From Williamwhitmania sp. (lineage in GTDB: Bacteria; Bacteroidota; Bacteroidia; Bacteroidales; Williamwhitmaniaceae), in the NCBI GenBank assembly GCA_035530955.1, contig DATKTT010000164.1, positions 1 through 52,081 of the forward strand: a stretch of 52,081 nucleotides of DNA, written 5' to 3'. This document shows positions 18,197 to 36,759 of the stretch, piece by piece; the first letter of the stretch is position 1, and each line of letters starts with the position of its first letter. The notes beneath the pieces were generated by a model. It saw only the letters and a list, made by a program, of their open reading frames with translations. It had not been told where the DNA came from and did not search any database. Position numbers and translations under genes: made by a program.

Positions 18197-18343
18197 TTTT
18201 TCCTTCGTTCACAACATCATTTTAACATTCCTCTCCTCCTGCCTTCCCCCTGATTTAGATTAGGGAAAAAAGTGACATTCAAACTGGTGTTCACTAGTTG
18301 TCAAATCTGAACCATACGATTTCTAGAGAGATATTATAAAAAA

Positions 18344-18377
18344 GAAAAGCCTCGAAGATGCAAATCTTCGAGGCTTT
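18344..18377 (-). terminator. Terminator downstream of the tRNA-like copy
   Basis: AAAGCCTCGAAGAT-gcaa-ATCTTCGAGGCTTT perfect stem with A-run; homologous to the hairpin at 18704-18740. Confidence 0.75.
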
Positions 18378-18378
18378 G

Positions 18379-18448
18379 TAGTAGCATGTTCAGGACTCGA
18401 ACCTGTGTCCGGCGGCTGCCGGATATGAGCCCAACGAGCTACCGCTGC
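18379..18448 (-). pseudogene. Modified partial copy of tRNA-fMet (D-arm to 3' end) with a 16-nt hairpin substitution
   Basis: Minus strand GCAGCGGTAGCTCGTTGGGCTCATA-TCCGGCAGCCGCCGGA-CACAGGTTCGAGTCCTG-AACAT-GCTACTA aligns to the tRNA at 38141-38213; no 5' acceptor strand. Confidence 0.85.
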
Positions 18449-18686
18449 AAGAGGAGGGTTCGTATGAAAATTCTTCCTTGGTGGGATTTGAGTTCCCGTT
18501 CCCGCTGCATGGCTTCGGCCTTGGTGGAAAATGTTTCCGAGTAGAGCAGCGTCCAGGGTTGGTATTTTCGGGTCCATCCTTTGCTGAGGGGATGGTTGTG
18601 AACCTCGACTCGACCTTGGAGGCTGGAGGTAAACCCCACGTATATCTTGCTGTGGGTTTCAGAGTAAAGGACGTAGGCATAAACAT
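18439..18686 (-). pseudogene. Small stand-alone GIY-YIG nuclease, 1-nt frameshift right after the ATG (or sequencing error)
   Basis: Frame reads YAYVLYSETHSKIYVGFTSSLQGRVEVHN..KGWTRKYQPWTLLYSETF.TKAEAMQRERELKSHQGR (Y..L/YVG.T, R..HN, E). ATG at 18686 is one base out of frame (ATGTTTATG vs expected ATGTTTTAT). Confidence 0.82.
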
Positions 18687-18703
18687 AGCCCTAAATATAA
18701 CGC

Positions 18704-18740
18704 AAAAAAAAACCTCGAAGACTTTCATCTTCAAGGTTTT
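18704..18740 (-). terminator. Original tRNA-fMet terminator, displaced by the island
   Basis: AAAACCTCGAAGA-ctttca-TCTTCAAGGTTTT imperfect stem with an A9 run, adjacent to the att site. Confidence 0.6.
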
Positions 18741-18741
18741 C

Positions 18742-18756
18742 TAGTAGCGGGGACAG
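18742..18756. repeat. att site (displaced tRNA 3' end), TAGTAGCGGGGACAG
   Basis: Identical to 38138-38152. Confidence 0.93.
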
Positions 18757-18870
18757 AAATTTTGACTGCAAATAAAGGAAGATAAATGCAGCTATATCCC
18801 TGTAATACAATACTGTAAATATAATATTTTTTCTCTTTTTTATTCTTTTTTTCACTCTATTGTCTTATAA

Positions 18871-18888
18871 TTGTAACTATACTGTAAC
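18871..18888. repeat. Putative integrase arm-type sites TTGTAACTATACTGTAAC
   Basis: Near-identical to TTGTAACTGTATTGTAAC at 38073-38090; paired TGTAAC 11 bp apart. Confidence 0.6.
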
Positions 18889-19096
18889 TCGATAAAAGAT
18901 TGAATATCAGACAATAATGTTTTGTTAGGTGAAATGATTGAGTTATACGAATTGTAGTTACATTTTCACACCGATTTCTTGCTTTCTGAACACAGAGTGT
19001 TTGTAATTCACAGGATTACAGACACTTGTGGTGTTAGTTCATTTTTCTGATTTTCAATCGTATAACAGTGCTATTAATTATTAAAGAGATTGAATT

Positions 19097-20245
19097 ATGG
19101 AAAAAAAGAACAAGGAAAAAACGGTAAAGACTTTTACTCCAGGAAGGCAGTTTAAGGTGAAATTGAGGGGGAAAAAGCAAGCGAATGGATATTGGTCTCT
19201 GTATCTCGAATATTACTGGGGCATGAAAAAAACGGATGGTGTTACCTCCGTTCCGCAACGGAAGTTTGAGTTTCTGGATATCCATATCAAAGACAAGCCT
19301 TCAAATCCAGAAGAAAGAAAAGAAAAGGAAGAGATGCTTGCATTGGCAATGGAAATCAGAGAAAACAGGCAGAAAGAAATCCAATATGGCCAAGAAGGTA
19401 TAATCAATCCAAAACGAAGGCAGATTAACTTCATTGATTATTTCCAGAAATTTCATGACAACTATGCGAACAAGGATATTAGAATTGTTCGGTATTGCTT
19501 AAAGCACTTCAAACAGTTTGTTGGCGAAAGTTACATTGCCCCACATGAAGTTACAGAAGATTTCTTAAGAAGGTTTAAGGTGTACTTGGAAGAACACTTA
19601 AACGGTGAAACCCCACATAACTACTTTACAAAAATGAAGAAAGTCGTTAAGCAGGCATACAACGATAAAATCTTGATTAGTAATACAGGAGAGAATATTC
19701 CGAACACAAGAAACGAGGGGTTGAAAAAGGATATTCTAAGCCTAGAAGAAATACAGAAGCTAGCACTTGCCGAGTGTAGTAATGAAGAGATTAAAAGAGC
19801 CTTTTTGTTTTCTCTTAACACAGGTCTCCGGTTTTGTGATATTAAGGAACTTAGATGGCAAAATGTATATGATGATAGAGTTGTGATCAAAAGCCAGAAG
19901 AAAACGGGGAAGCCAGTTTATATAGACTTGAATCAGAATGTAAAGAAAATTCTTGAAGTACCTCATGGAGAGTATGATGAATTCGTATTTCAACTGCCTA
20001 CACTCACAGGTTGCTTAAAAACTTTAAAAACTTGGACAAGAAATGCAGGTATTAAGAAGAATATTACTTGGCATAGTGCAAGGCATTCGATTGCTGTAAA
20101 TATGTTAACACTGGGCACTGATATAAAAACAGTAAGCGGGATTCTTGGTCATTCTAGTTTAAAGCATACTGAGAAATATACACGCATTGTTGACGAACTA
20201 AAGAAAAAAGCAGTTAACACATTACCTAACATTGAATTATCATGA
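19097..20245 (+). CDS. int: Tyrosine integrase (Bacteroidota arm-binding + SAM-like + catalytic domains)
   Basis: SLYLEYY arm domain; catalytic set TGLRFCD, QKKT, WHSARH, LGH, TEKY all intact. Confidence 0.95.
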   Translation: MEKKNKEKTVKTFTPGRQFKVKLRGKKQANGYWSLYLEYYWGMKKTDGVTSVPQRKFEFLDIHIKDKPSNPEERKEKEEMLALAMEIRENRQKEIQYGQEGIINPKRRQINFIDYFQKFHDNYANKDIRIVRYCLKHFKQFVGESYIAPHEVTEDFLRRFKVYLEEHLNGETPHNYFTKMKKVVKQAYNDKILISNTGENIPNTRNEGLKKDILSLEEIQKLALAECSNEEIKRAFLFSLNTGLRFCDIKELRWQNVYDDRVVIKSQKKTGKPVYIDLNQNVKKILEVPHGEYDEFVFQLPTLTGCLKTLKTWTRNAGIKKNITWHSARHSIAVNMLTLGTDIKTVSGILGHSSLKHTEKYTRIVDELKKKAVNTLPNIELS

Positions 20246-20820
20246 TACTAAATACAGTTAGAAACGACAAGGTTCCTGCACTTCGGGAATTTATTGATAA
20301 GGTACTACCCAAACATCGGGAATATTACCTAAAAGAGAATGAAAATGCCAATGAGTTGGATTTTCTGGAATCGCTGAAAGAAATATATACAATTGACTTG
20401 AGCGACTATATCCGAATTAAGGGAAACGATTTTTTTGATGACGAAATTCACAAGAACAAGAGAATTATCGAGTATCTAAACAACCAGATTCAGCAATACA
20501 AAATCGGTCAATTAATTATGGTTAGTATAAGGGATAAGAAAGACAATAAAACTCAACTAAGCATTGATAGTAGCAAGCGGGTTTTAACACTGGAAGAAGC
20601 TGCAACTTTCACAGGATTTTCTAAGTCGTACCTCTACAAACTAACATCCGGGGGAATTATTGAGTTCTCGAAGCCTAACGGTAAAACCATATTTTTTGAA
20701 AGGGAATATCTTGAAAAGTGGATGTTGTCAGGTAAATCTAAAAAGAAGGAAGATATTGAACGTGAAGCATTAAGTTATTGTACGCTAACAGCCTGGAAAG
20801 GAGGTCATTATGGAAAGTAA
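20242..20820 (+). CDS. Excisionase-like HTH_17 protein with N-terminal extension
   Basis: VLTLEEAATFTGFSKSYLYKLTS..I.FSKPNGKTIFF..LEKW; overlaps the int stop (ATGA). Confidence 0.8.
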   Translation: MILNTVRNDKVPALREFIDKVLPKHREYYLKENENANELDFLESLKEIYTIDLSDYIRIKGNDFFDDEIHKNKRIIEYLNNQIQQYKIGQLIMVSIRDKKDNKTQLSIDSSKRVLTLEEAATFTGFSKSYLYKLTSGGIIEFSKPNGKTIFFEREYLEKWMLSGKSKKKEDIEREALSYCTLTAWKGGHYGK

Positions 20821-22828
20821 TGCAACACCTTGTGAGCCGGTACTATTAATTAACCCTGCGCTGGTTTATTTTGATAAGGGGATATTAACTGTTCCAGTTC
20901 GTTTGTCTGATGGAAAACCTATGGTGGATTTGGAAAGGTTTTTAAAAGAGGAAGTAACTCGATCTGATTTGAAAATAATGTTTGAGGAGTTTGATACAGA
21001 GACTTATGGTATAGCTATCCTTACGAATAGCAGATTTGGTAATTGTGAGGGAATTCGTTTTAGGGGAAGTAGAGAGGAAATTAGAGCGACAATAAATGAT
21101 ATACTTTCTTCTCGAAGCCTTCAACATTTAAGTAGTGAAAATAAGATTTTGATTAACAGTCATGCAGAAGGGTTCGATATAATTTACATGTTGCCAGAAA
21201 TGGGTTTATCACCAGTTACTACTGATGAGAAAATCGATATTGTAGGTAATCGGAAACCGTATATTGAAGTTATTGGGAAAGATGGTTATTTAATTGTTTT
21301 CCCAACAAAGGGATATGGCATTGAATCAAAGAACTTTTTTTCATCAACCATCTCAATAAGTGATAGAAATACGCTGATTGAACTGGCTCTGTTGTATGAT
21401 CAACCATTGAATAGTTATATGGACGGAATGGTATACGGACGGAAAGAATACTTGGTTCGTATTGCAAATGAATATAATGCCAATTCTACAAGTAAATCTA
21501 CTATTAGCAGTTATCTAAGAGAAGAGTTAAAATGGGAAAGGCATACAAAGAATATCTGGGTTAAGAGAATATCTGATACAGAAATTGTGTATGGGTCGAT
21601 GGATTTCATTAAGCAAGATAGTTTTTTTGTTTTGCATAAAATTGGGCCATTTGAACCCAAAACGCTTTATAAACCTTTTGATATTAGGGTCATACAGGCT
21701 GGTGGAGATTATTTAAAAGTTGCCTATGACGTTTGCTCTAAAATACCTAAGTTGGATGCTGCAGAATTATTGCGACATGAAAAAATCCTACAAGACTTTC
21801 GAAAGTCTCATGTGTCAATAATGGAGGAATATATTGAGTCAGACCCCATCATCTACACTGAAGATGATGGAGGGAAATATGAGATTTGTTCTAAGAACAA
21901 CATCTCGGTACTAAGCGGTAAAGCAAAAGTTGGGAAAACCCTATTGTTGAGTGAGGTAATAAGTTCAGCATTTATGGATAATGGGGTGTTCCTGTTTTCT
22001 CCAAGTATCTCAGGAAAGAAAGTGGTTTACTTTGATACGGAGCAGTCAAGAAACCATTCTAGAAAGATTAATGAGCGAGTTTTACAAAAATCTAAGAAAA
22101 GCAAGGCGTTTATTTCGGAAAGGTTTGAATTGTACAATATCACAAAGTTAAGCCCGAAAGAGAGGGTTGAGGTAATAGAGGACAACTTGTATAGCGATTC
22201 TGAGATTGCAATATTGATAATAGATGGAATCGTGGATCTCATTGGTAATTATAATAATCCAGAGGAAGTTTCGGTATTAATGTCAAAACTGCTTAAATGG
22301 AAGGATGAAAACCCAATACACATTATGGTAGTTATACACGAAAACAAGGGAAATTCACTACTTCGGGGTCATTTGGGTACTGAATTAATGAATAAAGCTG
22401 AAACCATAATTGGGGTATCAAAAACCAAAGATATAATCAAGGTGAAATGTAAAGCATCAAGAAACAGGGATTTTGAACCTAAGGCATTTAAAATACTTGA
22501 AGGTGGATTTCTTGAGCCTATTACAAAACTCTCTGATAAAAAAGAAGATAATTCCATTGAGAACTATACAGAAGATGAACATATTGATTTATTAGCAACT
22601 GTTTTTGATAGTGTTGATGAAATGCAATACAAAGAATTGATAACTAATCTTAAAGAATCTCTATTGGTAAAATTCGAAATAAAGATCGGGGTTAATAAGG
22701 TAAAGAGTTTGATTTCAAAATATTGTGAGGATCATCTATTGCAAAAGGTTAGAAAAGGTGTTTATTCTTTTAAGTTTGATTTGGTTGGTTCGGGTGTTCA
22801 TGGTGAGGATGAAGAAAAAACTACTTAA
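20810..22828 (+). CDS. Degenerate Prim-Pol domain fused to AAA_25/RecA-like ATPase (replication protein)
   Basis: N-terminal ALVY..G..VPV..KP / GIAILT / G.DGYLIVFPT.GY pattern; Walker A GKAKVGKT, YFDTEQ, Walker B IIDG, IHENK..RGHLG. Confidence 0.7.
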   Translation: MESNATPCEPVLLINPALVYFDKGILTVPVRLSDGKPMVDLERFLKEEVTRSDLKIMFEEFDTETYGIAILTNSRFGNCEGIRFRGSREEIRATINDILSSRSLQHLSSENKILINSHAEGFDIIYMLPEMGLSPVTTDEKIDIVGNRKPYIEVIGKDGYLIVFPTKGYGIESKNFFSSTISISDRNTLIELALLYDQPLNSYMDGMVYGRKEYLVRIANEYNANSTSKSTISSYLREELKWERHTKNIWVKRISDTEIVYGSMDFIKQDSFFVLHKIGPFEPKTLYKPFDIRVIQAGGDYLKVAYDVCSKIPKLDAAELLRHEKILQDFRKSHVSIMEEYIESDPIIYTEDDGGKYEICSKNNISVLSGKAKVGKTLLLSEVISSAFMDNGVFLFSPSISGKKVVYFDTEQSRNHSRKINERVLQKSKKSKAFISERFELYNITKLSPKERVEVIEDNLYSDSEIAILIIDGIVDLIGNYNNPEEVSVLMSKLLKWKDENPIHIMVVIHENKGNSLLRGHLGTELMNKAETIIGVSKTKDIIKVKCKASRNRDFEPKAFKILEGGFLEPITKLSDKKEDNSIENYTEDEHIDLLATVFDSVDEMQYKELITNLKESLLVKFEIKIGVNKVKSLISKYCEDHLLQKVRKGVYSFKFDLVGSGVHGEDEEKTT

Positions 22829-22896
22829 CTGAAGTTTAAGTTAGGTTAGTTTAGTTTAGATAAGCCTATACATATAGGCTTAATCTAAACTGAAGT
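22827..22896. repeat. Ori-like inverted repeat and iterons after the rep gene
   Basis: AGTTTAGATAAGCCTATA-ca-TATAGGCTTAATCTAAACT (22853-22891), flanking AACTGAAGT direct repeats, tandem AGTT(T/A) pentamers. Confidence 0.65.
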
Positions 22897-23092
22897 AAAG
22901 TAACTGTGAACGGATTGTGAAAGAGTTGTTTTTAGGCCTTTTGGGCGAATTAAACCGATGTTTTAGGATTTAATGTTTTTCAGAAAAAACGGTCGTTTTC
23001 TTAACGAGTTGTTGTTCAGTAAAATAAATGCATTTTTCTTGGTGCTTTATTACCTAAAAAAGTATCTTAGCCACGTTTTTAATAAACAGTGT

Positions 23093-23728
23093 ATGAGAAC
23101 GATAGGATACATAAGAGTTTCGACTGAGAAGCAAGATTTGGATAAGCAGCGGTTCCTGTTACTTGAATACGCTCACAAGGAACGGATACAAATTGATGAG
23201 TTTGTTGAGGTAGAAGTATCTTCAAGAAAAAGTCAAACCGAAAGGCGAATAGATGAGTTGCTAACAAAGTTAGAGGAGGGCGATCTTTTACTCGTCATAG
23301 AATTAAGTAGGTTAGGGCGCAACATGCTTGAAACTTTAAATATTGCGAACACGCTTACAGAACGAGGAATTTCTTTGCGATGTATTCGCCAACCTGAGAT
23401 TAATACTTCCGGGGTTCACGGAAAATTGATTATGGCCATTTTTGGATACTTTGCGGAAGCAGAAAGAGACTTTATCTCGCTTCGAACAAAGCAAGGTCTG
23501 GAAGCAGCAAGGGCACAAGGCAAAAAGTTAGGTCGCCCCAAAGGATGTAAAAATAAGAAAGGTCTTGTTCTCGACCCTTTCAAGGACGAAATTATGGCTT
23601 ACATGAAGTTGGGTTTGCCAGTTGCTTCAATCAGAAAGATAATTAACGGAAAGGTTGAAAGGAAACTCTCCTACAATACCTATTCAACCTATGTGATGGG
23701 ATTAAACGGGGATGGAATTTTTATCTAA
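23093..23728 (+). CDS. Small serine recombinase (resolvase/invertase family)
   Basis: MRTIGYIRVST (catalytic Ser), ELSRLGR, AEAERDFISLRTKQGL, GKKLGRP; ATG 23093 preferred. Confidence 0.92.
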   Translation: MRTIGYIRVSTEKQDLDKQRFLLLEYAHKERIQIDEFVEVEVSSRKSQTERRIDELLTKLEEGDLLLVIELSRLGRNMLETLNIANTLTERGISLRCIRQPEINTSGVHGKLIMAIFGYFAEAERDFISLRTKQGLEAARAQGKKLGRPKGCKNKKGLVLDPFKDEIMAYMKLGLPVASIRKIINGKVERKLSYNTYSTYVMGLNGDGIFI

Positions 23729-23743
23729 CTGAAATCAAACACT

Positions 23744-24412
23744 ATGAAAGCGGGCTTTTTACAAAACTTTACACAATTCGGTGATCTCCTGAGTGATTTG
23801 GTTAACCGAACAAAACCAAAAGAAGAAAGAATGGTTCCGGAACGCCCAGTAAAGTATACTGAGGATGACAATTTTGAAGGGATACAGGAGATTTTACTCC
23901 TGAAAATGGCATTGGAATACTCCGATGATGTGGTATTGAAAGAAGAAACGGGAAATATTACCCGGGTATCTGATGAAGAAAGGACTTTGCAGTTTCAAAG
24001 GAATCAGCACACCATTAAACAGGCATTGGAAGCCTATATCTCGGTTCATGGGAAAATGCCAAGCCAAGCAACTTTAGCAAAACTGACAGGTTTTTCAAGC
24101 CCCACCATTTACGCACACTTTCGGGAAGGGGCATTGAATTTGAAACTCAGGGAGGAAATGGCAAAGTTGAAGCTGGTCAGTTCGAACTTATTTGCAAAGT
24201 TGTATCAGCTTGCAATGGATGGAGATAAACAGGCAATTAAGATGGTTTTTGATATACTGGCCTTAGGTCAGAAGATGCAAGCAGGAACGCAAAGTAACTA
24301 CATTCAGGTTAACAATCTGAAAATACAAAACCACAACCTTGATAGGCTAACCTCAAGAACAAAAAAGAAAATTGAAAGGTTAATCAGAAAGGATTTAAGA
24401 CTTGAAGATTAA
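23744..24412 (+). CDS. HTH-containing hypothetical protein, weakly terminase-small-subunit-like
   Basis: HTH MPSQATLAKLTGFSSPTIYAHF followed by LYQLAMDGDKQAIKM. Confidence 0.5.
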   Translation: MKAGFLQNFTQFGDLLSDLVNRTKPKEERMVPERPVKYTEDDNFEGIQEILLLKMALEYSDDVVLKEETGNITRVSDEERTLQFQRNQHTIKQALEAYISVHGKMPSQATLAKLTGFSSPTIYAHFREGALNLKLREEMAKLKLVSSNLFAKLYQLAMDGDKQAIKMVFDILALGQKMQAGTQSNYIQVNNLKIQNHNLDRLTSRTKKKIERLIRKDLRLED

Positions 24413-24413
24413 C

Positions 24414-24635
24414 CTACTCCTTGAAATCGACAAGATCAGACAAGCTAATTTCTAGAGCTACACTAATTCTATGTAATAGCCAAAGAGTACAATTAGTTCT
24501 CCCTTTCTCAATCCTCCTTAATGCGCTATCCTCAATATCCAATTTACGAGCCAGTTCGATTTGCTTCAAATCTTTAGCCTCTCGCAGTTTAACGATTCTT
24601 TTGCCCAGCTGTATTTGAATCTCCTCTTTGGTCAT
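24414..24635 (-). CDS. XRE-family HTH regulator (R-M controller-protein-like)
   Basis: LGKRIVKLRE..LKQIELA...RIEKGRTN.TL..L.RIS.ALEI; ATG 24635 preferred. Confidence 0.88.
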   Translation of the reverse strand: MTKEEIQIQLGKRIVKLREAKDLKQIELARKLDIEDSALRRIEKGRTNCTLWLLHRISVALEISLSDLVDFKE

Positions 24636-24687
24636 TAATGGATATAGATTGACCAAACAAGGTTCTAATATTTGGACAAACTATTCA

Positions 24688-24701
24688 GAACATATATGTT
24701 C
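24688..24701. promoter_or_regulatory. Palindromic operator GAACATATATGTTC
   Basis: Perfect 14-bp palindrome between the divergent XRE gene and the lipoprotein gene. Confidence 0.6.
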
Positions 24702-24778
24702 GGATTGTTGTAATATTTTATTATTTTAGTAGTCTATTATTGTAAGTCGAGACTGTTAAAACCGCAAAACTTGATACC

Positions 24779-25201
24779 ATGAAAAGGATAACACTTTTAT
24801 TTTCCGTATTAATTATTGGATTACTTTTTGGCTGTACAGCTGGTTCAACAAAGGAAGATAAACCAGTTACTAATGAACAAAAGAAAGAGGTGTTAAGGTA
24901 TTTAATGAGCGGAATTTGGGTAAATGAGTATAACCTTACCGCTGAAATTGACCTTGTGCAAGAAAGACCATTCTGGAAGGATAAGAATGGTAACATTTAC
25001 TATCTTGAATTAGTTGCCTATGATTTGGATAACTTAACCATAATTGCAAAAGAAAGTAACAGCTCTGCAAGGTCAAATGGTGTAACCTTGCGTTTAATAA
25101 GGTTAGATAATGACAGTTATGCACTAACTTGGAAGTATGATAGGGGTAAATTGCTCTTTTGCAACTTCGTAAGAAAGCTTGACAGATATATGGATAAATA
25201 A
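24779..25201 (+). CDS. Hypothetical lipoprotein
   Basis: MKRITLLFSVLIIGLLFG-C lipobox. Confidence 0.7.
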   Translation: MKRITLLFSVLIIGLLFGCTAGSTKEDKPVTNEQKKEVLRYLMSGIWVNEYNLTAEIDLVQERPFWKDKNGNIYYLELVAYDLDNLTIIAKESNSSARSNGVTLRLIRLDNDSYALTWKYDRGKLLFCNFVRKLDRYMDK

Positions 25202-25265
25202 GGAATAGAATAACTTTATTAAGCCCTCAACGTGCCATTGCTTAAGTTTTTTTTAAATTATAGAC

Positions 25266-25715
25266 ATGAACAGCTGTAAGCCATTCAGAGAATTAAAATC
25301 TGCCGAAACTTGTGTAATTTGTGGGAGGTCTCGGGTAGAGTCTGGGATCATGATAGTATCCCAGAAAGCAAGGGGTCTCGGCTTTTCGGATACACCTATC
25401 GGAGGAGGTGGCAAGAAAAAGCAGTATAGAAGCATACCCCTCAATGAAGGCAGAATTGAGTTTATGGTTTTCTGGGGAGAGGTTGGGTTCTGGTCTCAGA
25501 CATCTATGGAAAAAGCGATAGAGATGCATCACAATAATTTGCACCCTTGGTTTTGTTCTTATTGTGGAAATAGAACATGTTCGATTTGTGGTGCACCTTT
25601 GAAATCACCTGTCGGCTCTGACTATTTAACAATAAAAGGTGAAATGTTTCACAACCCCATTCTGGGGGTAAAAATACCATGTTCCAATTTGAAATGTAAA
25701 TCCAATCAATATTAA
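25266..25715 (+). CDS. Hypothetical Cys-rich (zinc-finger-like) protein
   Basis: CVICG, CSYCG, CSICG and CSNLKC motifs; co-oriented with neighbours. Confidence 0.5.
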   Translation: MNSCKPFRELKSAETCVICGRSRVESGIMIVSQKARGLGFSDTPIGGGGKKKQYRSIPLNEGRIEFMVFWGEVGFWSQTSMEKAIEMHHNNLHPWFCSYCGNRTCSICGAPLKSPVGSDYLTIKGEMFHNPILGVKIPCSNLKCKSNQY

Positions 25716-25739
25716 CGGAATTAATCTAATCTTACTGAA

Positions 25740-27434
25740 ATGAATAAAATACTAATACTTGGCCTAATTTGTTTGAGTTTGAATACCTACTCACAAACCC
25801 AAGAGTATTCAGGGACATATAAAGGAAAGAAAACATCCGGGAAGGCTTTATACACCTACATTCAGCAAAGTGATAGCAGGGTTTTTGATGGCATCTTTCG
25901 TTACAAGTCAGAATACCTCACAATATCTGGACATTTCAAGGACAACCTGAAGACTGGTCTTTGGGAAATGACCAACACAATGAAAACAGATTACGTTTGC
26001 AAAAATTGCTATAACTCCGTGAAAGGGGGGTATGTAAATGGGTTATTGAGTGGAGAATGGATTTATCAAATCCATAGCGAAGAGAATGCTTATAATGCAA
26101 ATGATTTAACTAACCCGCAGAAAGTCAAAAAAGCCGATATAATATATAGAGTTAATTTTTCTAATGGCAAATTTTCAGGAGTATTTGACACAAGAGGAGC
26201 AAAAGGGGCTTTCAATGAAAATGGTTTGATAAATGGGCCGTGGAAAGTAGTTGATAGTGATGGTAATGTTATCAATTATGAATTTTCTAACGGAGTCTTA
26301 ATCAAATATACCAAAACGAATTATTCAACTGGTGATGTTCTAGAGAAATGGTCAAACCTTTATGATATAGAAAAGATTAGGTCAAACTTGGATACCAATA
26401 CAAATATTTCCCTTGTGGATGGTCAGTTTTATAGGTTAGATCGTCCAAATACTAATACTGAGGAGAGTAATTTCCCTTATAAATTGGATAATCTATTTGA
26501 GGCTATTAATTTTTGGTTTGATTATCAGGGGTTTGAGTATTTATTTGAGATTGAAAGGGGAAGCAAGCCGCCTAAAGCAGATTATTATATTCAGGTGGAA
26601 GTATTAAAAAAGGAGACAGCAGAAAAATTAATTGCGAATAGCAATAATCATTTGTTTGTTGCTTATTTAAGGGAAAAGAAACAGGAAGAAGAGCGTGAGG
26701 AACAAAGGAAAATTGAAGAACTTTCAAAATATGGCCCGTTAGATGTAGTGAGGACTTCACTTCCCCTAGGGGCAAAAATAACGATAGCTAAAAACGCTGT
26801 GTTTAGCATTATACTCAAAAATGAGGGAGGAAGAACTTTAAGTCATGTGAGATGCACTGTCTCAGGAGAAAGAAATGGTTTTGTAACAAGAAATAATATA
26901 GCATATTTTGATACTATTGCACCACAGCAAGAGGTAGAAATTAAGGATTTCTCCGTGTTTGTACCCGGTAACTATAAGAGTGGAGATACATTGTTTTTCA
27001 AGATTAAGATTGATAATTCGGCGAGAGCCATGGAATCTAAATTTCATATTATTGTTGGCACACAGAACTTAAAAATAGTTGGATGTCCTTTCGAAATCAG
27101 ATGGAAACCGTATTTGAATTCTCGATGTGATTTTAAAAAAGGAGGAAAAATGGAATGTTGGGTTAAAAATAATTCTGAATTCTCGTTTAAGAATTTAACT
27201 TTTACATTGCAAACTTATGATGGCATTTTGTTGCCAAATCGTTTTAACATACCAGTTATTGATTCAGGGCAGGAAATTGAATTGTTTAAGGCTGGGGATG
27301 ATTATGCTTTTGAAATCCAGTCAAATAGAAAGTTGATTAAAGTTAATTTTACCCTAATGAATAATGAACTTCAATGTTCGAAAACAATTGAAATAACTGA
27401 ATACTCGCCAAAAACTTCAATGAAACAGAAATAA
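25740..27434 (+). CDS. Secreted protein with MORN/YwqK-like repeats, coiled coil and C-terminal beta-sandwich domains
   Basis: Signal peptide; G.F.D..K.G.W / G.Y.NG...G.W repeats; EKKQEEEREEQRKIEE; Ig/CARDB-like I.LKNEGG..L..V. Confidence 0.6.
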   Translation: MNKILILGLICLSLNTYSQTQEYSGTYKGKKTSGKALYTYIQQSDSRVFDGIFRYKSEYLTISGHFKDNLKTGLWEMTNTMKTDYVCKNCYNSVKGGYVNGLLSGEWIYQIHSEENAYNANDLTNPQKVKKADIIYRVNFSNGKFSGVFDTRGAKGAFNENGLINGPWKVVDSDGNVINYEFSNGVLIKYTKTNYSTGDVLEKWSNLYDIEKIRSNLDTNTNISLVDGQFYRLDRPNTNTEESNFPYKLDNLFEAINFWFDYQGFEYLFEIERGSKPPKADYYIQVEVLKKETAEKLIANSNNHLFVAYLREKKQEEEREEQRKIEELSKYGPLDVVRTSLPLGAKITIAKNAVFSIILKNEGGRTLSHVRCTVSGERNGFVTRNNIAYFDTIAPQQEVEIKDFSVFVPGNYKSGDTLFFKIKIDNSARAMESKFHIIVGTQNLKIVGCPFEIRWKPYLNSRCDFKKGGKMECWVKNNSEFSFKNLTFTLQTYDGILLPNRFNIPVIDSGQEIELFKAGDDYAFEIQSNRKLIKVNFTLMNNELQCSKTIEITEYSPKTSMKQK

Positions 27435-27861
27435 CCAGGAGAGAATGTTTATTTAAAGGTCGAAATTTCAGTTCCGCTGCTGCCTAATGGTTTTTATTGG
27501 GTCGGGTAGAGAAAGTTTGACATAATTATCGATAACAGGCCGAATTTCATTCCTTATTGTTTCCTTAGTTTTCCTTTTATATTTTTACATGAACACTCAG
27601 AATAGAAAAAAGGAACACACTAATGTGTTGACTTTGTTTGACTATTTGTAGGGTGCATGTTTTTTTCCTGTAATTTCCCTGAAATTAGCGTAACGAAAAG
27701 TGAGAATCCTACGTACCTAAACGATACCAGTTTATACGGTATTGGGATGAAACAGAGACAGAACTTTTTGCTCCTCGCCTAAAACTTTCAATCTGTCAGA
27801 ATTTTATTCCCTTATGATAAATTTTAAAAGCATAAGAATCTGAAATTGACCTAAGATTTCT

Positions 27862-27869
27862 TATTTTTG
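27862..27869 (+). promoter_or_regulatory. Sigma-A -7 box (TATTTTTG) for the hsdR operon
   Basis: TAnnTTTG 24 nt before ATG 27894. Confidence 0.5.
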
Positions 27870-27893
27870 AAAGAAACGTTTTTTACTGGGTCA

Positions 27894-30275
27894 ATGATAG
27901 ATAAGAAAAGTTTATCCGAAAGGGATATTTGTACGAAATATATTACCCCTGCAATAGAAAATTCTGCGTGGAATAAACAAACGCAGTTGCGTGAGGAAGT
28001 TACTTTTACTGATGGGAAGATTTATGTTAAAGGTAAATTGACAGCGAGAGGTAAAAGAAAAAGGGCGGACTATATTTTATACTATAAACCGAACATACCT
28101 GTTGCTATTATAGAGGCGAAAGACAATAACCATTCGGTCAGGTCAGGAATGCAACAGGCTTTGGAGTATGCTAGAATTCTGGACATCCCTTGTGTTTTCA
28201 GTAGCAATGGGGATGGTTTTTTATTTCACGACCGAACAAATACTAATAATATTGAAATTGAAATCGGTTTGAACGAGTTTCCCTCACCTCAACAACTCTG
28301 GGAAAAGTATAAGCGTTACAAGGGTATTGTAAGCCCCGAAGCCGAAAGAATTGCATCTCAGGACTATTTTTTTGATGGTAGTAGTCGTCTCCCCAGATAT
28401 TATCAGCAAATAGCTATTAACCGAACTGTTGAAGCCATTGCAAGGGGGCAGAACAGAATCTTACTGGTAATGGCGACTGGTACTGGAAAAACTTATACCG
28501 CCTTTCAGATTATCCATCGCCTATGGAAAAGTGGTGCTAAGAAAAGAATCCTTTTTCTAGTAGATAGAAACGCATTGATTGACCAAACAAAAAGGGGCGA
28601 CTTCAAACATTTTAAGGATAAAATGACGGTGGTCAAACATCGTATGATCGACAAAAGTTACGAAGTTTATTTGGCTTTGTATCAGGGTTTGTCTGGTGCT
28701 GATGAAGAAGCAAACGCCTATAAGCAGTTTTCACGGGAGTTTTTCGACTTGATTGTTATTGATGAGTGTCATAGAGGAAGTGCAAAAGAAGATAGTGCAT
28801 GGCATGAAATTCTAACCTATTTTGGAAAGGCTACGCATATTGGTCTTACAGCCACACCAAAGGAAACAGAGGAAGTATCGAATATTGGATATTTTGGAGA
28901 TCCAATATATACTTACTCATTAAAACAGGGAATAGATGATGGTTTTCTTGCGCCGTACCGAGTGGTTCGGGTTAACTTGAATATTGATGTTGAAGGTTGG
29001 CGACCCGAACAAGGGAAAACAGATAAAAACGGGGCTGAGGTGCAAGACAGGGTTTATAACCGAAAGGATTTTGACCGAAATATTGTGATTGATGAACGAA
29101 CAGAAACCGTTGCTAAAAAGTTAACGGAGTTTCTCAATGGTTCGGACCGTTTTGCAAAGACAATAGTTTTCTGCACCGATATTGACCACGCTGAAAGAAT
29201 GCGAACAGCCATTGCAAACATCAATGCTGATTTGGTGACTGAGAATTATAAATATGTAATGCAGATTACCGGAGATAATGACGAAGGGAAACGAGAGCTG
29301 GATAATTTCATTAGCCCAGAAGAAGTTTATCCTGTTATTGCAACCACTTCAGAATTAATGACTACTGGAGTTGATGCCCAAACTTGTAAGGTTATTGTAT
29401 TGGATTCGGAAATAAAATCGATAACAAAGTTTAAGCAGATAGTTGGTAGGGGTACACGTATAAATGAAGAATTTGGTAAGATGTATTTTACAATTCTCGA
29501 CTTTCGTAATGTTACCGATTTGTTTGCCGATGAGGAATTCGATGGTGAACCAATTCGCATTAAACCAATGTCGGAGGAGGATGATTTATCGGGTATCATT
29601 GATGAGGAAGAAACGGACTCAACTCCAATTATAGATGAAGAAACAGATGAAGAAATATTTATAGATCTTCCCGAACCTTCTTTACCACCAACACCGCCCT
29701 TGCCACCAAGGGAAAAGGTGTATGTGAATGGTGTTGATGTATCTGTATTGATTAGCCGTGAAGTGTATTTCGATACTAACGGTAAACCGATAACCACAAG
29801 CCTTAAAGACTATACCAAAGAAATTATCAAGGGGCAGTTTGCCTCATTGGATGATTTTTTAAATAGGTGGAACAGTTCAGATAAAAAGGGAGCTATTATT
29901 AAAGAACTGGAAGAACAGGGGGTAATGGTTGAAGCTTTAAGGGATGCCGTAAACCGTGAAGTGGATTTGTTCGACCTTATTTGTCATGTTGCTTATGACA
30001 TGCCACCCTTAACAAGGGTAGAACGGGCAAATAATGTTAAGAAGAGAAATTACTTTACCAAATATGGTGAACAATCTCGAAAGGTTTTGGAAGCATTACT
30101 GGATAAATATGCTGATGAAGGTATTACAAATATCGAAAGCATGGATGTACTCAAAGTAAAGCCGCTTACCGATTATGGTTCTCCGGTGGAGATTATACAG
30201 GAATTCGGCAGCAAAGACAATTATTTACAAGCAGTTAAAGAATTGGAAATTGAACTATATAAAACAGTTGCATAA
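27894..30275 (+). CDS. hsdR: Type I restriction endonuclease subunit R (EcoAI/EcoEI-like)
   Basis: SERDICTKYITPA, ADYIL..IEAK nuclease, MATGTGKT, DECHRG, GLTATP, QIVGRGTR, EcoEI_R_C-like tail. Confidence 0.96.
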   Translation: MIDKKSLSERDICTKYITPAIENSAWNKQTQLREEVTFTDGKIYVKGKLTARGKRKRADYILYYKPNIPVAIIEAKDNNHSVRSGMQQALEYARILDIPCVFSSNGDGFLFHDRTNTNNIEIEIGLNEFPSPQQLWEKYKRYKGIVSPEAERIASQDYFFDGSSRLPRYYQQIAINRTVEAIARGQNRILLVMATGTGKTYTAFQIIHRLWKSGAKKRILFLVDRNALIDQTKRGDFKHFKDKMTVVKHRMIDKSYEVYLALYQGLSGADEEANAYKQFSREFFDLIVIDECHRGSAKEDSAWHEILTYFGKATHIGLTATPKETEEVSNIGYFGDPIYTYSLKQGIDDGFLAPYRVVRVNLNIDVEGWRPEQGKTDKNGAEVQDRVYNRKDFDRNIVIDERTETVAKKLTEFLNGSDRFAKTIVFCTDIDHAERMRTAIANINADLVTENYKYVMQITGDNDEGKRELDNFISPEEVYPVIATTSELMTTGVDAQTCKVIVLDSEIKSITKFKQIVGRGTRINEEFGKMYFTILDFRNVTDLFADEEFDGEPIRIKPMSEEDDLSGIIDEEETDSTPIIDEETDEEIFIDLPEPSLPPTPPLPPREKVYVNGVDVSVLISREVYFDTNGKPITTSLKDYTKEIIKGQFASLDDFLNRWNSSDKKGAIIKELEEQGVMVEALRDAVNREVDLFDLICHVAYDMPPLTRVERANNVKKRNYFTKYGEQSRKVLEALLDKYADEGITNIESMDVLKVKPLTDYGSPVEIIQEFGSKDNYLQAVKELEIELYKTVA

Positions 30276-30278
30276 GAA

Positions 30279-30926
30279 ATGGATAAAACTACACTTTTAG
30301 ACCAACTATTTATAACCGCTTTGAAAAATGTTGATCAAAGTTATTACTCTACTGTGTATCAAAATATTGAAGTCTTTAAGCAGGAATTAAAGTCAAGAGC
30401 AGGACAATATACTAATGATACTTTCGAAAGGTATGGCGAAAGGGTGTTCTGTTATGAATTGTATCATCAACTCAGAATAGGGATTGACGAGATAAGAAAA
30501 AATTTTCCTGATTTTTTAACAGGGGCTTTATTACAAGGAGAAGTTAAAAAGATGATGATTACTGGTTTGCTCAAACGTTTACACTTAAATCCTTTGCAAG
30601 GTGAAATAGTACCAGATTTTCTTATTCATTCCCCTAGTTCATCAAAGGCTCATTATTGCGCTGTTGAGGTAAAGTGTATTAACGATTTATCTGAAGAAGC
30701 ATTTATGTCGGATGTTTCGAAATTGGCTGACTTAATTACTAATTTCAATTATGAACAAGGTTATTTTATTACTGTCAATTCAGACATTGAATATACTCGG
30801 GAGCTATTAGAAGCAACTGAGTGTATGATATATAATACTAGGGGTGCAGATAAGGTTAAAATTATCTGTAAACCAAATCAAAAAACAGAAGCAATTATAA
30901 GAAGATTATCGCCATGTCAAATTTAA
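30279..30926 (+). CDS. Putative PD-(D/E)XK nuclease-fold protein inserted in the hsd operon
   Basis: ERVFCYELYHQL..GE..VPDFLIH..AVEVK..D..KL; 3 nt after hsdR, overlaps hsdM by 13 nt. Confidence 0.65.
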   Translation: MDKTTLLDQLFITALKNVDQSYYSTVYQNIEVFKQELKSRAGQYTNDTFERYGERVFCYELYHQLRIGIDEIRKNFPDFLTGALLQGEVKKMMITGLLKRLHLNPLQGEIVPDFLIHSPSSSKAHYCAVEVKCINDLSEEAFMSDVSKLADLITNFNYEQGYFITVNSDIEYTRELLEATECMIYNTRGADKVKIICKPNQKTEAIIRRLSPCQI

Positions 30927-32350
30927 AAGGATTAATAGACAGCATACGAAAAATAATGTGGCAGGACACTGGTCTGAATGGAGATGCACAGCGCATTGAG
31001 CAATTGGGGTGGATGTTATTTTTCAAGATATTTTCAGACAAAGACAAGGAACTGGAATTACTGGACGATAACTATAAAAGCCCAATACCTGATGAACTAC
31101 ATTGGGATGCTTGGGCGGCTAATGACGAAGGTATTACTGGCGATGAGTTACAGGAATTTGTTGATCGCAAATTATTTCAAACACTTAGGAACTTACAGAT
31201 TGCACCCTCCAACGATGTATCTTACAAACGGGCTTTAATAGTTCGTGAAGTATTCGAAGGGAATAACAACTATATGAAAAGCGGTATCAATATTCGTAAG
31301 GTATTGAACAAGCTAAATGAAATAGATTTTAATATTGCGAAAGATAGACACGCTTTTGGTGAACTGTACGAAACCATTTTAAAGGAACTGCAAAGCGCTG
31401 GGAAAAGTGGTGAATTCTATACACCACGTGCAATTACTGAGTTGATTTGCGAGATTGTAGATCCAAAACTGGGTGAAAAGATACTCGACCCTAGTTGTGG
31501 TACTGGGGGGTATTTAACCGCAGCAATTGAACATCTAAAGAAACAGGCAAATAGTGTAGAAGAGCGCCAACGCATTGCAGAAAATATTGAAGGTTGGGAA
31601 TACAAGCCCCTTCCATATCTTTTGGCAACAACCAACTTGATATTGCACGATATTGAAGTGCCTAAGATTTATTTTCGTGATTCACTCGACCAACCCTTGA
31701 GCAATTATACCGAAAAGAACAGGGTAAATGTTATACTGGCAAACCCACCTTTTGGGGGTATTGTGGCGAACAATAATGAGAACAACTTTCCTCAGAATTT
31801 CCGCACAAAAGAAAGTGCCGATTTATTTCTGGTCTTAATGATTCACCTGCTCAAAAAAGATGGGAGGGCAGGTATTGTACTGCCAGACGGTTCGCTTACT
31901 GGCGACGGTATAAAGCAAAGGGTAAGACAACGATTATTGGAAGAATGTAACCTACACACAATTATTCGTTTGCCTAACTCTGTATTTCAGCCTTATGCAA
32001 CAGTGGCAACTAACTTATTGTTTTTCAATAAGGGAGAAAAGACAAAAGAAGTCTGGTACTATGAACACCGTTTGCCCGGTGGGCAAAAAGCCTACAACAA
32101 AACAAACCCTATAAAATTAAAGGAGTTTGACCCGATAAAAAAGTGGTGGAATAATCGGGAAGAATCCGAAGTAAGTTGGAAGGTTGACATACAAACCATT
32201 ATTGACCGTAACTATGATTTAGATATTAAGAATCCGAACAAGAAGGAAGAAATTATTGAACATACGAGTACTGAACTTTTGGACATGCTCGAAGCCTCTT
32301 TTGAAAAAAGTACCAGTTTGCTGGGTAAGATTAAGGAGGCAATTAAATGA
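30914..32350 (+). CDS. hsdM: Type I m6A methyltransferase subunit M
   Basis: GEFYTPR, DPSCGTGG (motif I), NPPF (motif IV), GRAGIVLPDG. Confidence 0.97.
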   Translation: MSNLKGLIDSIRKIMWQDTGLNGDAQRIEQLGWMLFFKIFSDKDKELELLDDNYKSPIPDELHWDAWAANDEGITGDELQEFVDRKLFQTLRNLQIAPSNDVSYKRALIVREVFEGNNNYMKSGINIRKVLNKLNEIDFNIAKDRHAFGELYETILKELQSAGKSGEFYTPRAITELICEIVDPKLGEKILDPSCGTGGYLTAAIEHLKKQANSVEERQRIAENIEGWEYKPLPYLLATTNLILHDIEVPKIYFRDSLDQPLSNYTEKNRVNVILANPPFGGIVANNNENNFPQNFRTKESADLFLVLMIHLLKKDGRAGIVLPDGSLTGDGIKQRVRQRLLEECNLHTIIRLPNSVFQPYATVATNLLFFNKGEKTKEVWYYEHRLPGGQKAYNKTNPIKLKEFDPIKKWWNNREESEVSWKVDIQTIIDRNYDLDIKNPNKKEEIIEHTSTELLDMLEASFEKSTSLLGKIKEAIK

Positions 32351-33816
32351 GTATAAGCATTAAATATGTTCCGCTTTCATTTATTAATACTGATGATGAG
32401 GTATTAAAGCAGATTAAGAATTCGGTTTTATTCAGTTACCTGTTGAGTAAACATGAAGAAACTACGCTTGAACATTATTTAGAATCCACGCAATATGGAT
32501 ATACTGCTTCTGCTCAAAAATCGGGTAGCCATAGACTTGTCCGAATTACTGACATTAGAAATGGTGGAGTTGACTGGGAGAATGTCCCTTATTGCGATTG
32601 TGATAGAGAGGATAATTACTTATTGAAGCAGAATGATATTTTAATTGCTCGTACAGGTGGTACAACTGGTAAAAGTTTTATAGTTAATAAAGTTCCTAAT
32701 AATTCAGTTTATGCAAGCTATTTGATTCGATTAAGATTAAAGAATGGGGTTAATATTGATTTTATAAACGCATTTTTAAACTCCTATGTTTTTTGGAGTC
32801 AGATAGTAGAAATGAAATCGGGTTCGGCAATGCCGAATGTAAATGCTGAAAAACTTAAAACCTTACGGTTACCAAAGTGTGATAGTGATATTCAGAAAGA
32901 ACTTAGTAAAGCAGCATTAGGTGAATCAATGAGTAGTGAATATGTAGGTGTTTTTGATAAAGTGAAATCAATTGAAGGTCTCTACAATAGTCATATTGGG
33001 GTTACAACTGAACTAACCCATCAACTTGATTTGATTAAGCAACTACGACAAGCATTTTTGCGTGAAGCCATGCAGGGTAAACTTGTACAACAAGACACAA
33101 ATGATGAATCTGCAAGCCAACTACTTGAAAAAATAATAGAAGAAAAAGAGCGATTGATTAAGGAAAAGAAAATAAGTAAAGATAAACCACTACCGCCTAT
33201 TAAGCTCGACGAAATACCTTTTGAAATTCCAGAAAATTGGACATGGTGTCGTCTGGGGGCAATAACTACTTATGGAACCTGCCCAAAAGCTGAGCCAGAA
33301 GATATAAGAGAGAATACTTGGGTGTTAGATTTAGAAGATATTGAAAAAGACACTTCTATGTTACTCGGTAAATTAAGGTTTAAGGAAAGAAAATCACTAA
33401 GTACTAAAAGTGTTTTTAAGAAAGGAGAGGTACTTTATTCCAAGTTACGACCATATTTGGACAAGGTTATTGTTGCCGATGAAGATGGTGTATGCACCAC
33501 AGAAATACTCCCTCTAAAATGTCTTGCTGGAATGAATCCCTATTTTTTTAGATATTTGTTGAAAAGGACAGATTTTTTAAACTATGTAAATAGTGTGACA
33601 AAAGGAATGAAAATGCCCAGATTAGGTACTAAAGAAGGCGTACTTGCATTAATGCCTTTAGCACCAATTAACGAACAACAGCGAATTGTCGCAAAACTGG
33701 ATGAACTTATGAAGTTTTGCGATGAACTGGAAGAAAGCATAAAGGGCAGTCAGCAACAAAACGAAATGCTTTTGCAACAGGTTTTAAGGGAAGCGTTAGA
33801 ACCCAATAAATTATAG
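32347..33816 (+). CDS. hsdS: Type I specificity subunit S (two TRDs)
   Basis: TRD1 (YGY..RITDI..ARTGGTTGK), spacer AMQGKLVQQD..PFEIPENW, TRD2 (SKLRPYL), EQQRIV. Confidence 0.94.
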   Translation: MSISIKYVPLSFINTDDEVLKQIKNSVLFSYLLSKHEETTLEHYLESTQYGYTASAQKSGSHRLVRITDIRNGGVDWENVPYCDCDREDNYLLKQNDILIARTGGTTGKSFIVNKVPNNSVYASYLIRLRLKNGVNIDFINAFLNSYVFWSQIVEMKSGSAMPNVNAEKLKTLRLPKCDSDIQKELSKAALGESMSSEYVGVFDKVKSIEGLYNSHIGVTTELTHQLDLIKQLRQAFLREAMQGKLVQQDTNDESASQLLEKIIEEKERLIKEKKISKDKPLPPIKLDEIPFEIPENWTWCRLGAITTYGTCPKAEPEDIRENTWVLDLEDIEKDTSMLLGKLRFKERKSLSTKSVFKKGEVLYSKLRPYLDKVIVADEDGVCTTEILPLKCLAGMNPYFFRYLLKRTDFLNYVNSVTKGMKMPRLGTKEGVLALMPLAPINEQQRIVAKLDELMKFCDELEESIKGSQQQNEMLLQQVLREALEPNKL

Positions 33817-33837
33817 TTTGAAAATAACAATACCAAT

Positions 33838-35697: not shown

Positions 35698-35717
35698 AAA
35701 TTAATCTAAAAAAGGTC

Positions 35718-35732
35718 ATTCCTAACTCGACG
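35718..35732. repeat. 15-bp direct repeat ATTCCTAACTCGACG, left of the kinase-STAS-PIN cassette
   Basis: Identical to 37738-37752. Confidence 0.8.
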
Positions 35733-35835
35733 TTTATCGACTGCTTTTGAATGGTGTTTGGCTACATTTTGGGATATAAAACGGACAAAATAATGAATAA
35801 GTAAGTTTAAAAGATGTTTAACTGTCAGTTATAAA

Positions 35836-36705
35836 ATGAGTTCAAATCGAGAATATACAATTACTGCAAGAAATCAGATTGTTGGTACTAGTATAAATGG
35901 TATGCTTAGTTTGATTAATTATTATCACTACGCGAAGCAATATCGGAATTGTTGGATTAACTTGAATTTAGATGGTGTTAATTTTATTGATGCGAACTTA
36001 TCTGCTTTTCTTTACAGCATAGTGTATGACTTGAAGAATAATTTTGGAGTGAGTACATTTATCGACTTCAAAAGCATTGGCAAGGATTTGAATGTATTAA
36101 TGAGAAATGGATTTACTAACCATGTAGCAGGCAATGGTTATCAATTTAAACCTTACGATGAAAGAGATACTACTATTCCACTAATGGTTTTTAACCAAAA
36201 AAACGTTGATGATTATTGTGACTACATTGAAAGGGATTTTTTACATCAAAGAGGATTGCGAAATATCCGTTTTAATGATAAGGATAGAATTATAGCAAGC
36301 TATATTGAAATATTTGAAAATGTAGGATTACATGCTAATACAAATGACCCTGTTTTTGTTTGTGGACAATATTTTCCTAAACAAGGGGAATTGAAATTTA
36401 CTTTGGTTGACCTCGGAGATGGATTTTTGAAGAAGATAGCAGAATATACTAAAGGTGATGAAAACATTACTACGGCATCTGATGCTATTCATTGGGCTAT
36501 TGCTGGTCATTCAACCAAGATTGGTGCACCTGGGGGAACAGGTCTAAGAGATATTTTTAGATTTTGCACACAAACTGGTGGGTCTTTGCATATAATGTCG
36601 GATGATTGTTATTATAATCTAACCAACACGACAACACACACGTATAAATTACTAAAGCAATATAAAGGGGCAACAATACATTTAATTTTTAGATTCCTTC
36701 TTTAA
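35836..36705 (+). CDS. STAS-like + HATPase_c (anti-sigma-type kinase fold) protein
   Basis: N-terminal LNLDGVNFIDA (STAS-like); EIFENVGLHA, VDLGDGF, HSTK..GGTGL, GATI; no HisKA domain. Confidence 0.78.
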   Translation: MSSNREYTITARNQIVGTSINGMLSLINYYHYAKQYRNCWINLNLDGVNFIDANLSAFLYSIVYDLKNNFGVSTFIDFKSIGKDLNVLMRNGFTNHVAGNGYQFKPYDERDTTIPLMVFNQKNVDDYCDYIERDFLHQRGLRNIRFNDKDRIIASYIEIFENVGLHANTNDPVFVCGQYFPKQGELKFTLVDLGDGFLKKIAEYTKGDENITTASDAIHWAIAGHSTKIGAPGGTGLRDIFRFCTQTGGSLHIMSDDCYYNLTNTTTHTYKLLKQYKGATIHLIFRFLL

Positions 36706-36739
36706 GTTTTGTATTTGGTTTAATAATTGAGTAAATCAC

Positions 36740-36747
36740 TATATTTG
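36740..36747 (+). promoter_or_regulatory. Internal sigma-A -7 box (TATATTTG) upstream of STAS-PIN
   Basis: TAnnTTTG 12 nt before ATG 36760; TTTG at 36714-36717 upstream. Confidence 0.5.
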
Positions 36748-36759
36748 AGGCTCTAAATT

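Follow-up and report, generated by a model that had tools for sequence, protein, structure and literature searches.

Among described systems, Ssn and SegB are two of the closest to the locus presented here. In Ssn, the nuclease SsnA binds a hairpin in single-stranded DNA and cuts upstream of it, and an IS200/REPtron-like origin has been proposed for the system in the part of its description available here (PMC11893778). In the case of SegB, a tRNA-segB unit is amplified in tandem by a process that depends on both the nuclease and recombination, according to the accessible portion of that report (PMC13096335). Here we describe a 363-bp unit in a stretch of Williamwhitmania sp. DNA (the window, 52,081 nucleotides in full), in which a GIY-YIG gene is followed by a partial duplicate of the host tRNA gene that is interrupted by a hairpin, the plug. 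A literature search, with most subscription papers outside it, found no tRNA-nested GIY-YIG unit with a plugged copy; this variant of the nuclease-plus-hairpin selfish-element theme is apparently undescribed, and some of the genes could be listed in Supplementary Data 3-5 of the Ssn paper (PMC11893778). With a probability of roughly 0.55, we read the unit as a member of a widespread class of integrase-free selfish cassettes of about 360 bp, in which the hairpin serves as recognition mark and nick site of the nuclease and recombination drives gain and loss.

The window unit and the order of events

The only tRNA in the window is a tRNA-Met(CAT) at 38140-38213 on the minus strand, which carries the initiator marks of a GGG/CCC anticodon stem and an unpaired 1:72 position. 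On the same strand, the 363-bp unit runs from terminator T1 through a GIY-YIG frame and a partial tRNA-fMet copy to terminator T2. The features, with the evidence for each, are as follows.

38140..38213, minus strand: intact tRNA-fMet(CAT) gene that hosts the unit, with the island's terminator now 3' of it (tRNA search and sequence)
38138..38152, minus strand: att core copy of 15 nt at the tRNA 3' end (repeat comparison)
18757..38137, no strand assigned: tyrosine-integrase island of 19.4 kb, lower in GC and outside the unit (Pfam/NCBIfam; missing from this site in the relative G002)
18742..18756, minus strand: att core copy, the displaced original 3' end of tRNA-fMet (repeat comparison; G002)
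18704..18741, minus strand: terminator T1, the original terminator of the tRNA, a hairpin (18709-18742) plus a T run (directly 3' of the tRNA in G002)
18439..18690, minus strand: GIY-YIG nuclease frame, 82 codons from 18687, with TAG at 18441-18439 (open reading frame and Pfam)
18424..18443, minus strand: 5' block of the tRNA copy, from D-loop to A37, which matches the tRNA at all 20 nt and overlaps the stop codon (alignment to the tRNA)
18408..18423, minus strand: plug, a perfect GC-rich 6-bp hairpin of 16 nt in place of the 10 nt of tRNA positions 38-47 (alignment)
18379..18407, minus strand: 3' block of the tRNA copy, with an identical T-arm (17 nt, 18391-18407) and a partly decayed acceptor strand (alignment)
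18336..18377, minus strand: terminator T2, homologous to T1, with its hairpin at 18346-18377 (sequence)

Much of this anatomy had been pointed out in a preliminary description of the DNA, and it is borne out here: TAGTAGC starts at 18379 and 18742 with a spacing of 363 bp (and also at 38138), the two terminators are homologous, the TAG stop of the nuclease frame falls within the D-arm-derived block of the copy, and alignment shows that the hairpin stands where the tRNA has the 10 nt 3' of its anticodon, between identical blocks of 20 and 17 nt. In the window copy the CCCC of the acceptor strand has given way to AACAT, so that this instance is decaying. The nuclease gene is very likely dead, judging from its frame: the ATG at 18686 does not share the GIY-YIG frame (open from 18690 to 18442), and the in-frame GTG at 18639 would leave out both conserved tyrosines. 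Rfam covariance models over 18200-19100 gave no match at gathering score, only sub-threshold terminator-like hits, and thus none to known RNA families, the COG2827 motif included; the literature search found no paper describing that motif. A 21-nt match to the copy elsewhere in the same genome (C107:2466) has neither tRNA nor nuclease context and was taken as chance.

The frame matches Pfam PF01541 with an E-value of 3.7e-16 and has no other Pfam hit; an NCBIfam search assigned the window protein to no family, and TIGR01453 gave no match for it, with three relatives far below its cut-off. The conserved tyrosine, tyrosine-glycine, arginine, histidine and glutamate of GIY-YIG domains have catalytic roles, and Y5, Y16, G18, R26, H30 and E63 are invariant across 30 sequences, the window's included. 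The structure model (pLDDT 95.1) has its best matches in UPF0213 (1zg2) and Slx1/HIGLE, those to I-TevI and UvrC being weak, and Foldseek gave E-values of 3.8e-4 to 0.03 for Slx1/UPF0213 versus 0.38 for I-TevI. The modelled fold is nearer to Slx1/UPF0213 than to I-TevI-type homing endonucleases, a kind of GIY-YIG nuclease that the preliminary description had mentioned.

The island between tRNA and unit carries a tyrosine integrase (19097-20245), a resolvase, a type I restriction-modification system, a HATPase and a STAS-like (DUF4325)/PIN pair; its genes (19097-37727) further comprise an HTH gene, an AAA_25 protein and six ORFs without Pfam or NCBIfam hit. In the relative G002, which is 96-97% identical in the flanks, tRNA, T1 and gene start are contiguous with no island between them, as expected from the order proposed earlier for the island-free locus (tRNA-fMet, terminator, GIY-YIG gene, copy, terminator). 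In run X2, which comes from a second study (run X1, a possible source of the window sequence, was left out of the comparison), one contig equals 18130-18478 with zero differences and in another the att core is joined to intact tRNA sequence. The contiguity in G002 and the latter contig establish that the unit came first and that a later integrase island split the tRNA-fMet from it. Two tandem SiaC-family genes (window 17274-18196) end just past T2, and the SiaC gene of G002 has another downstream neighbour. A further genome, G001, was considered as a clean empty tRNA-fMet site and rejected, with other DNA 3' of its tRNA and the SiaC flank elsewhere.

The same comparisons bear on the reading, already weighed in the preliminary description against its own proposal, that an older integrase island left the copy behind as its att remnant, the presence of the GIY-YIG gene being incidental. 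We regard it as barely credible: tRNA-fMet is an island target in the window and, by eye, also at loci L241 and L222, but the 15-nt att core of that island is a separate sequence, the unit occurs without the island in G002 and predates it, the unit has no integrase of its own, an anatomy of the same three parts is met again at about 20 tRNA types, and arrays of it have a period of about 350-380 bp. At L241 (G144:C34, an array of eight units) and L222 (G108:C2), only a 3' tRNA fragment precedes the array or unit, which suggests splitting by an island, as in the window.

In G002 the run after the ATG has one extra T relative to the window, and the gene is cut short. The nearest intact relative found, locus L153 (80% identity), shares the window's hairpin variant, in an undamaged copy; between it and the window dN is 0.095 against a dS of 0.89, a contrast that suggests a recent loss of function in the window gene. 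The genome that contains the window has a second unit (G000:C45:9950-10584), at a different tRNA-CAT that we take from its sequence to be of the Ile2 type, with an intact 86-aa gene; this unit is also found in G001 (L070, G001:C61). In these orthologous Ile2-type units the two terminators of a genome are identical or almost identical to each other and differ from those of the other genome. At C45 and L070 the T-arm of the copy is the site of a long nest of hairpins, and one of their arms resembles the NTS hairpin.

Recurrence at tRNA genes of Bacteroidota

Of 201 Bacteroidota genomes searched with a profile, 133 have the gene, with up to 21 matches in one genome. In a phylum scan of 89 loci, drawn from the best 150 of 631 matches (top-scoring and thus non-random, with L223 and L241 overlapping), 75 had a same-strand tRNA within 300 nt, 56 of them upstream and 19 downstream, and more than 20 tRNA types were involved. 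The GTDB loci behaved similarly (35 of 43 with such a tRNA, 32 upstream, of which 27 were CAT, and three downstream; seven of the 43 had no near tRNA and one had no HMM hit), and the control figure, from ORFs of the window's own genome, was 15 of 2513. A partial copy of the same tRNA lay beyond the far side of the gene at 62 of the 75 tRNA-adjacent phylum-scan loci, and copy and hairpin occurred together at 46 of these 75 and at 18 of the 35 tRNA-adjacent GTDB loci; the shuffled expectation for hairpin-positive flanks was 0.2 and 0.1, respectively, the four hairpin prefixes of this test having been picked after the data had been viewed.

The 14 phylum-scan loci without a near tRNA are, by eye, mostly array interiors, contig ends and island-split sites, and two of them sit in RNase P RNA genes. 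In L279 (G164:C1:1458550-1460250) and L299 (G176:C1:2197450-2199150), a nuclease relative lies inside the RNase P RNA gene, at what we take from the alignment to be P19 and P3, respectively, and is flanked in both by helix-forming inverted repeats; at L299 the presumed P19 position is taken by a TCCGCC-type hairpin. At L251 (G130:C44:91900-94000) a nuclease gene lies between direct repeats of about 90 nt, some 500 nt downstream of tmRNA. Phage carriage is rare, with one protein locus in the viral scans encoding a relative.

Units are multiplied at some sites and missing from others. Arrays comprise four units at L019 and eight at L241. Among 30 tRNA-fMet loci of one genus (that of G230, from 39 matching genomes), four have the full gene and two hold gene-less plugged copies, and its empty sites have a downstream flank in common with the filled ones. 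In a second genus (that of G081), the full gene is present at 13 of 24 tRNA-fMet sites, a stub at one and nothing at ten, of which two lie on short contigs. In two genera, then, filled sites coexist with empty ones that have the same downstream flank. The use of the upstream versus the downstream terminator as an indicator of gain or loss failed, both types being found at empty sites of the G230 genus. Gene-less tandem plugged tRNA-fMet copies lie beside an intact gene or unit at L066 (G012:C69:1-1000), L157 and L099.

The gene is under strong purifying selection, with dN/dS estimated at about 0.05 (medians of 0.045 from the 11 of 66 pairs that are unsaturated and of 0.058 from four of six pairs). 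Synonymous sites are saturated in 55 of the 66 pairs of one genus, and this would fit long vertical residence as well as spread. In a quick tree of 59 phylum-scan proteins, built from about 86 columns, the target amino acid changes 19 times (mean 43.5 and minimum 38 in 300 shuffles) and the host family 37 times (shuffled mean 43.6, minimum 39). The proteins group by target tRNA more than by host family, which itself has some signal in the tree; the grouping is descriptive, given that kin share labels.

Selection of this strength raises the alternative of a domesticated nuclease that serves the cell, by restricting hairpin-bearing single-stranded DNA as SsnA does or by acting on branched DNA, and that sits at tRNA genes for its expression amid passive repeat turnover. 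The saturated synonymous sites and the presence of the gene in two thirds of the genomes sampled would agree with such a function, as would the modulation of transformation by SsnA stated in the available part of its report (PMC11893778). Yet presence within genera is patchy, stops, stubs and gene-less copies are frequent (the window and G002 are among them), single genomes hold as many as 21 matches at many tRNAs, and the duplicated plugged tRNA is left unexplained by any host role, so that we consider a host function quite unlikely.

The hairpin plug and the exchange of sequence

The plug was also approached from the DNA side, with a pattern that fixes four of its base pairs and gave at least 120 loci and at least 140 matches in metagenomes. 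Among the matches listed, a stem of at least 6 bp (four of them imposed by the pattern) was present in 71 of 73 with a T-arm 3' of the hairpin versus 15 of 67 others. Where T-arm and stem were both present and 350 nt of upstream sequence were listed, 30 of 37 matches had the gene in the locus (immediately upstream in 23 and elsewhere in seven) and seven had none, and the gene was found with none of the 52 listed matches that had a short stem and no T-arm. None of 14 viral pattern matches was a plugged copy.

The hairpin is conserved and covarying. In 39 fMet units, the two pairs that the pattern leaves unconstrained (5 and 6) are paired in all 39, pair 5 being C-G in 31, T-A in seven and G-C in one, and pair 6 C-G in all. 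Within fMet copies the plug substitutes a fixed 10-nt stretch in register, and its position varies by tRNA type; proteins of the fMet clade that are found at tRNA-Val (L019) and tRNA-Phe (L022, L226) keep the TCCGCC plug at new positions. In the window's own genome, sites of the form TCCG-N7-9-CGGA have all six pairs in nine of 68 cases (about four expected), and five intergenic hairpins resemble the plug together with its flanks. Free plug-like intergenic hairpins of this genome (G000) lie at C33:2899, C133:1623, C137:1052, C178:3713, C201:1065 and C228:23079-23165, several of them in TTTGAAAA-type short repeats; the C228 hairpin is imperfect and lies 3' of a possible short stub of a GIY-YIG start.

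On the two sides of the plug, the copy relates differently to its host tRNA. The 6 nt 3' of the plug are the host's own T-stem allele in 33 of 39 fMet units, with an identity of 0.95 to the own host versus 0.67 to other hosts (16 alleles), and this host-specific identity is lower nearer the terminator (0.66 versus 0.43). Decay is seen in the 20 nt 5' of the plug, where identity is 0.71 to the host's own tRNA and 0.70 to that of other hosts; variable sites are few on this side, and among 27 informative copies 20 still agree with their host at tRNA position 28. In the mirror layout, with the copy upstream, it is by eye again the outer segment that seems conserved. The pattern shows that tRNA and copy continue to exchange sequence and that the hairpin forms one boundary of this exchange. 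Its asymmetry would fit ordinary direct-repeat recombination, the 3' block being the longer uninterrupted homology, and it does not imply that a nuclease starts the exchange, as repeat recombination would yield a similar pattern.

The decay of the 5' side bears on another suggestion of the preliminary description, namely that transcription of the copy yields a tRNA-like RNA which acts as a partner of the protein or as a decoy of tRNA-targeting nucleases. The copy has its own terminator, an anticodon loop sequence and a T-arm, and the 8 nt preceding the plug show conservation in 19-21 of the 23 loci reached from the protein side. Among the public runs listed, no RNA data set contained the sequence, a result without bearing on its expression. 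However, the 5' acceptor strand is absent, the anticodon stem is destroyed and a cloverleaf is not predicted; a second hairpin has entered the T-arm in at least eight of 39 fMet copies (counted by eye), no Rfam match reaches gathering level over the unit, and the gene sits behind a terminator. An RNA role is thus improbable, and this part of the earlier proposal finds poor support.

We therefore return to the selfish cassette with a hairpin mark, whose mechanism may be envisaged as follows. The protein would cut DNA, and, by analogy with SsnA and its NTS repeat, the hairpin of the plugged copy would be the substrate that it recognises. A nick next to the hairpin would render the adjoining tRNA 3' segment recombinogenic, exchanges probably beginning at the outer edge of the hairpin, at tRNA position 48, and host recombination across the duplicated segment would add, multiply or remove units. 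Every exchange would leave one intact tRNA, so that a functional tRNA is always restored and the site may act as a safe harbour, and transfer from cell to cell would proceed by recombination and not by an integrase. An excised circle was not seen. The recurring tRNA-nested cassette, the arrays and the empty sites support the recombinase-free selfish unit proposed in the preliminary description, although the window gene itself is broken; the homologues do carry tRNA fragments with palindromes and form tandem arrays, and empty tRNA-fMet loci exist, both of which it had suggested looking for. It had also offered the hairpin as a mark of recognition or of self-immunity. Recognition is favoured by a hairpin that is conserved and covarying, follows the protein clade when the tRNA is switched and occurs free, whereas immunity is weak, as filled loci keep an intact tRNA gene and the plug cannot protect the chromosome.

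The principal alternative is homing, in which the nuclease would cut the intact tRNA gene at the anticodon arm or variable loop, a filled allele would be the repair template from which the unit is copied, and the only effect of the plug would be to rid the copies of the cut site. Such a course is in keeping with the fixed 10-nt register of the plug in fMet copies, with the grouping of proteins by target tRNA, with an identity to the host allele that begins exactly at position 48, and with SegB, which cuts inside tRNA genes and amplifies them according to the portion of its report available (PMC13096335). We nevertheless hold it to be unlikely. The intact tRNA gene retained at filled loci would leave them without immunity; any change would suffice to destroy a site, yet the plug sequence is fixed and its changes are compensatory; the plug goes with the protein clade to new targets, also occurs free and takes different positions in different tRNA types; and the modelled fold lies closer to Slx1/UPF0213 than to I-TevI.

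A broader generalisation of the hairpin-mark reading is possible, though we put it forward as doubtful. The units could represent a new class of minimal mobile element, in which an Slx1-like nuclease of 80 residues, with no integrase, transposase or reverse transcriptase, recognises hairpins of 16-20 nt and plants them in genes of structured RNAs (many tRNAs and RNase P RNA), the hairpin edge being where the recombination that copies a unit of about 360 bp starts and each clade having a distinct, very small hairpin-specific nicking enzyme.

Comparison with known systems

The value of the window copy lies in a clear order of events, unit first and island second, and in the lead that it gave to intact relatives. 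Small GIY-YIG genes with no assigned function, present in two thirds of the sampled Bacteroidota, gain a specific candidate substrate, the plugged copy as against the intact tRNA gene, and the anatomy provides a way to explain the pseudo-tRNA repeats as well as the stray GC hairpins of Bacteroidota genomes. If the proposed mechanism is true, the units would be among the smallest self-propagating units known and, as with Ssn, would supply many very small DNA nucleases with specificity for a structure or a sequence.

Ssn (SsnA of Neisseria meningitidis, CDD cd10448) resembles the present family in having a single GIY-YIG domain of less than 100 aa and a gene associated with a short GC-rich hairpin of which free copies are likewise present in the genome. 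According to the available part of its description, Ssn differs in that its hairpins flank the gene (NTS-gene-NTS) and have another sequence, whereas the hairpin here plugs a tRNA duplicate; the words 'tRNA' and 'Bacteroid' have no occurrence in the main text, which draws no link to tRNAs (PMC11893778). Site-specific cleavage, of single-stranded DNA only, characterises the Ssn nucleases. The NTS consensus, as given in the part of that source available, is absent from the flanks of the window unit, whose sole hairpin differs in sequence and lies in the tRNA copy. As stand-ins for Ssn, we used four GIY-YIG genes beside NTS motifs, obtained from 134 NTS loci. The NPxW C-terminal tail is confined to these four among 149 proteins, the other 145 being without it; the four form a long-branched clade of their own (SH-aLRT 96, branch 1.23, in a tree with unsupported deep forks), and an NTS-flanked protein is 29% identical to the window protein over 65 aa. 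On this sequence evidence we lean against placing the window protein in the Ssn clade cd10448. At L011:2059-2200, by eye, a truncated second unit leads into a fragment encoding an Ssn-type GIY-YIG C-terminal NPxW tail.

SegB, a free-standing GIY-YIG homing endonuclease of T-even phages, shares with the present units a gene beside tRNA genes and the tandem amplification of a unit, but it is a phage-encoded cutter of double-stranded DNA that amplifies an intact tRNA, and a plugged duplicate is not mentioned in the accessible part of its report (PMC13096335); the present protein, in contrast, is a bare domain of about 80 aa, chromosomal and rarely viral, and nearer in modelled fold to Slx1 than to I-TevI. 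Stand-alone Slx1-like/UPF0213 proteins (1zg2, 1ywl) are the best matches in sequence and structure and likewise minimal GIY-YIG domains, whereas the associations reported for them, in the part of the source available, are with methyltransferases and not with tRNA nesting, duplication or a hairpin (PMC1564403). With REPtrons (RAYT plus REP hairpins) and IS200/IS605 the units have in common a small enzyme gene and cognate hairpins scattered in the genome, but the enzyme of those elements is an HUH tyrosine transposase, as far as the available part of their description goes (PMC3733652), while GIY-YIG is the sole Pfam hit of the present unit, which is bounded by a direct repeat of the host tRNA. 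Tyrosine-integrase islands at tRNA genes, finally, likewise leave behind a second tRNA 3' end and a restored gene; in contrast to them, the unit described here has no integrase, duplicates the terminator as well, includes the tRNA part 5' of the plug and forms arrays.
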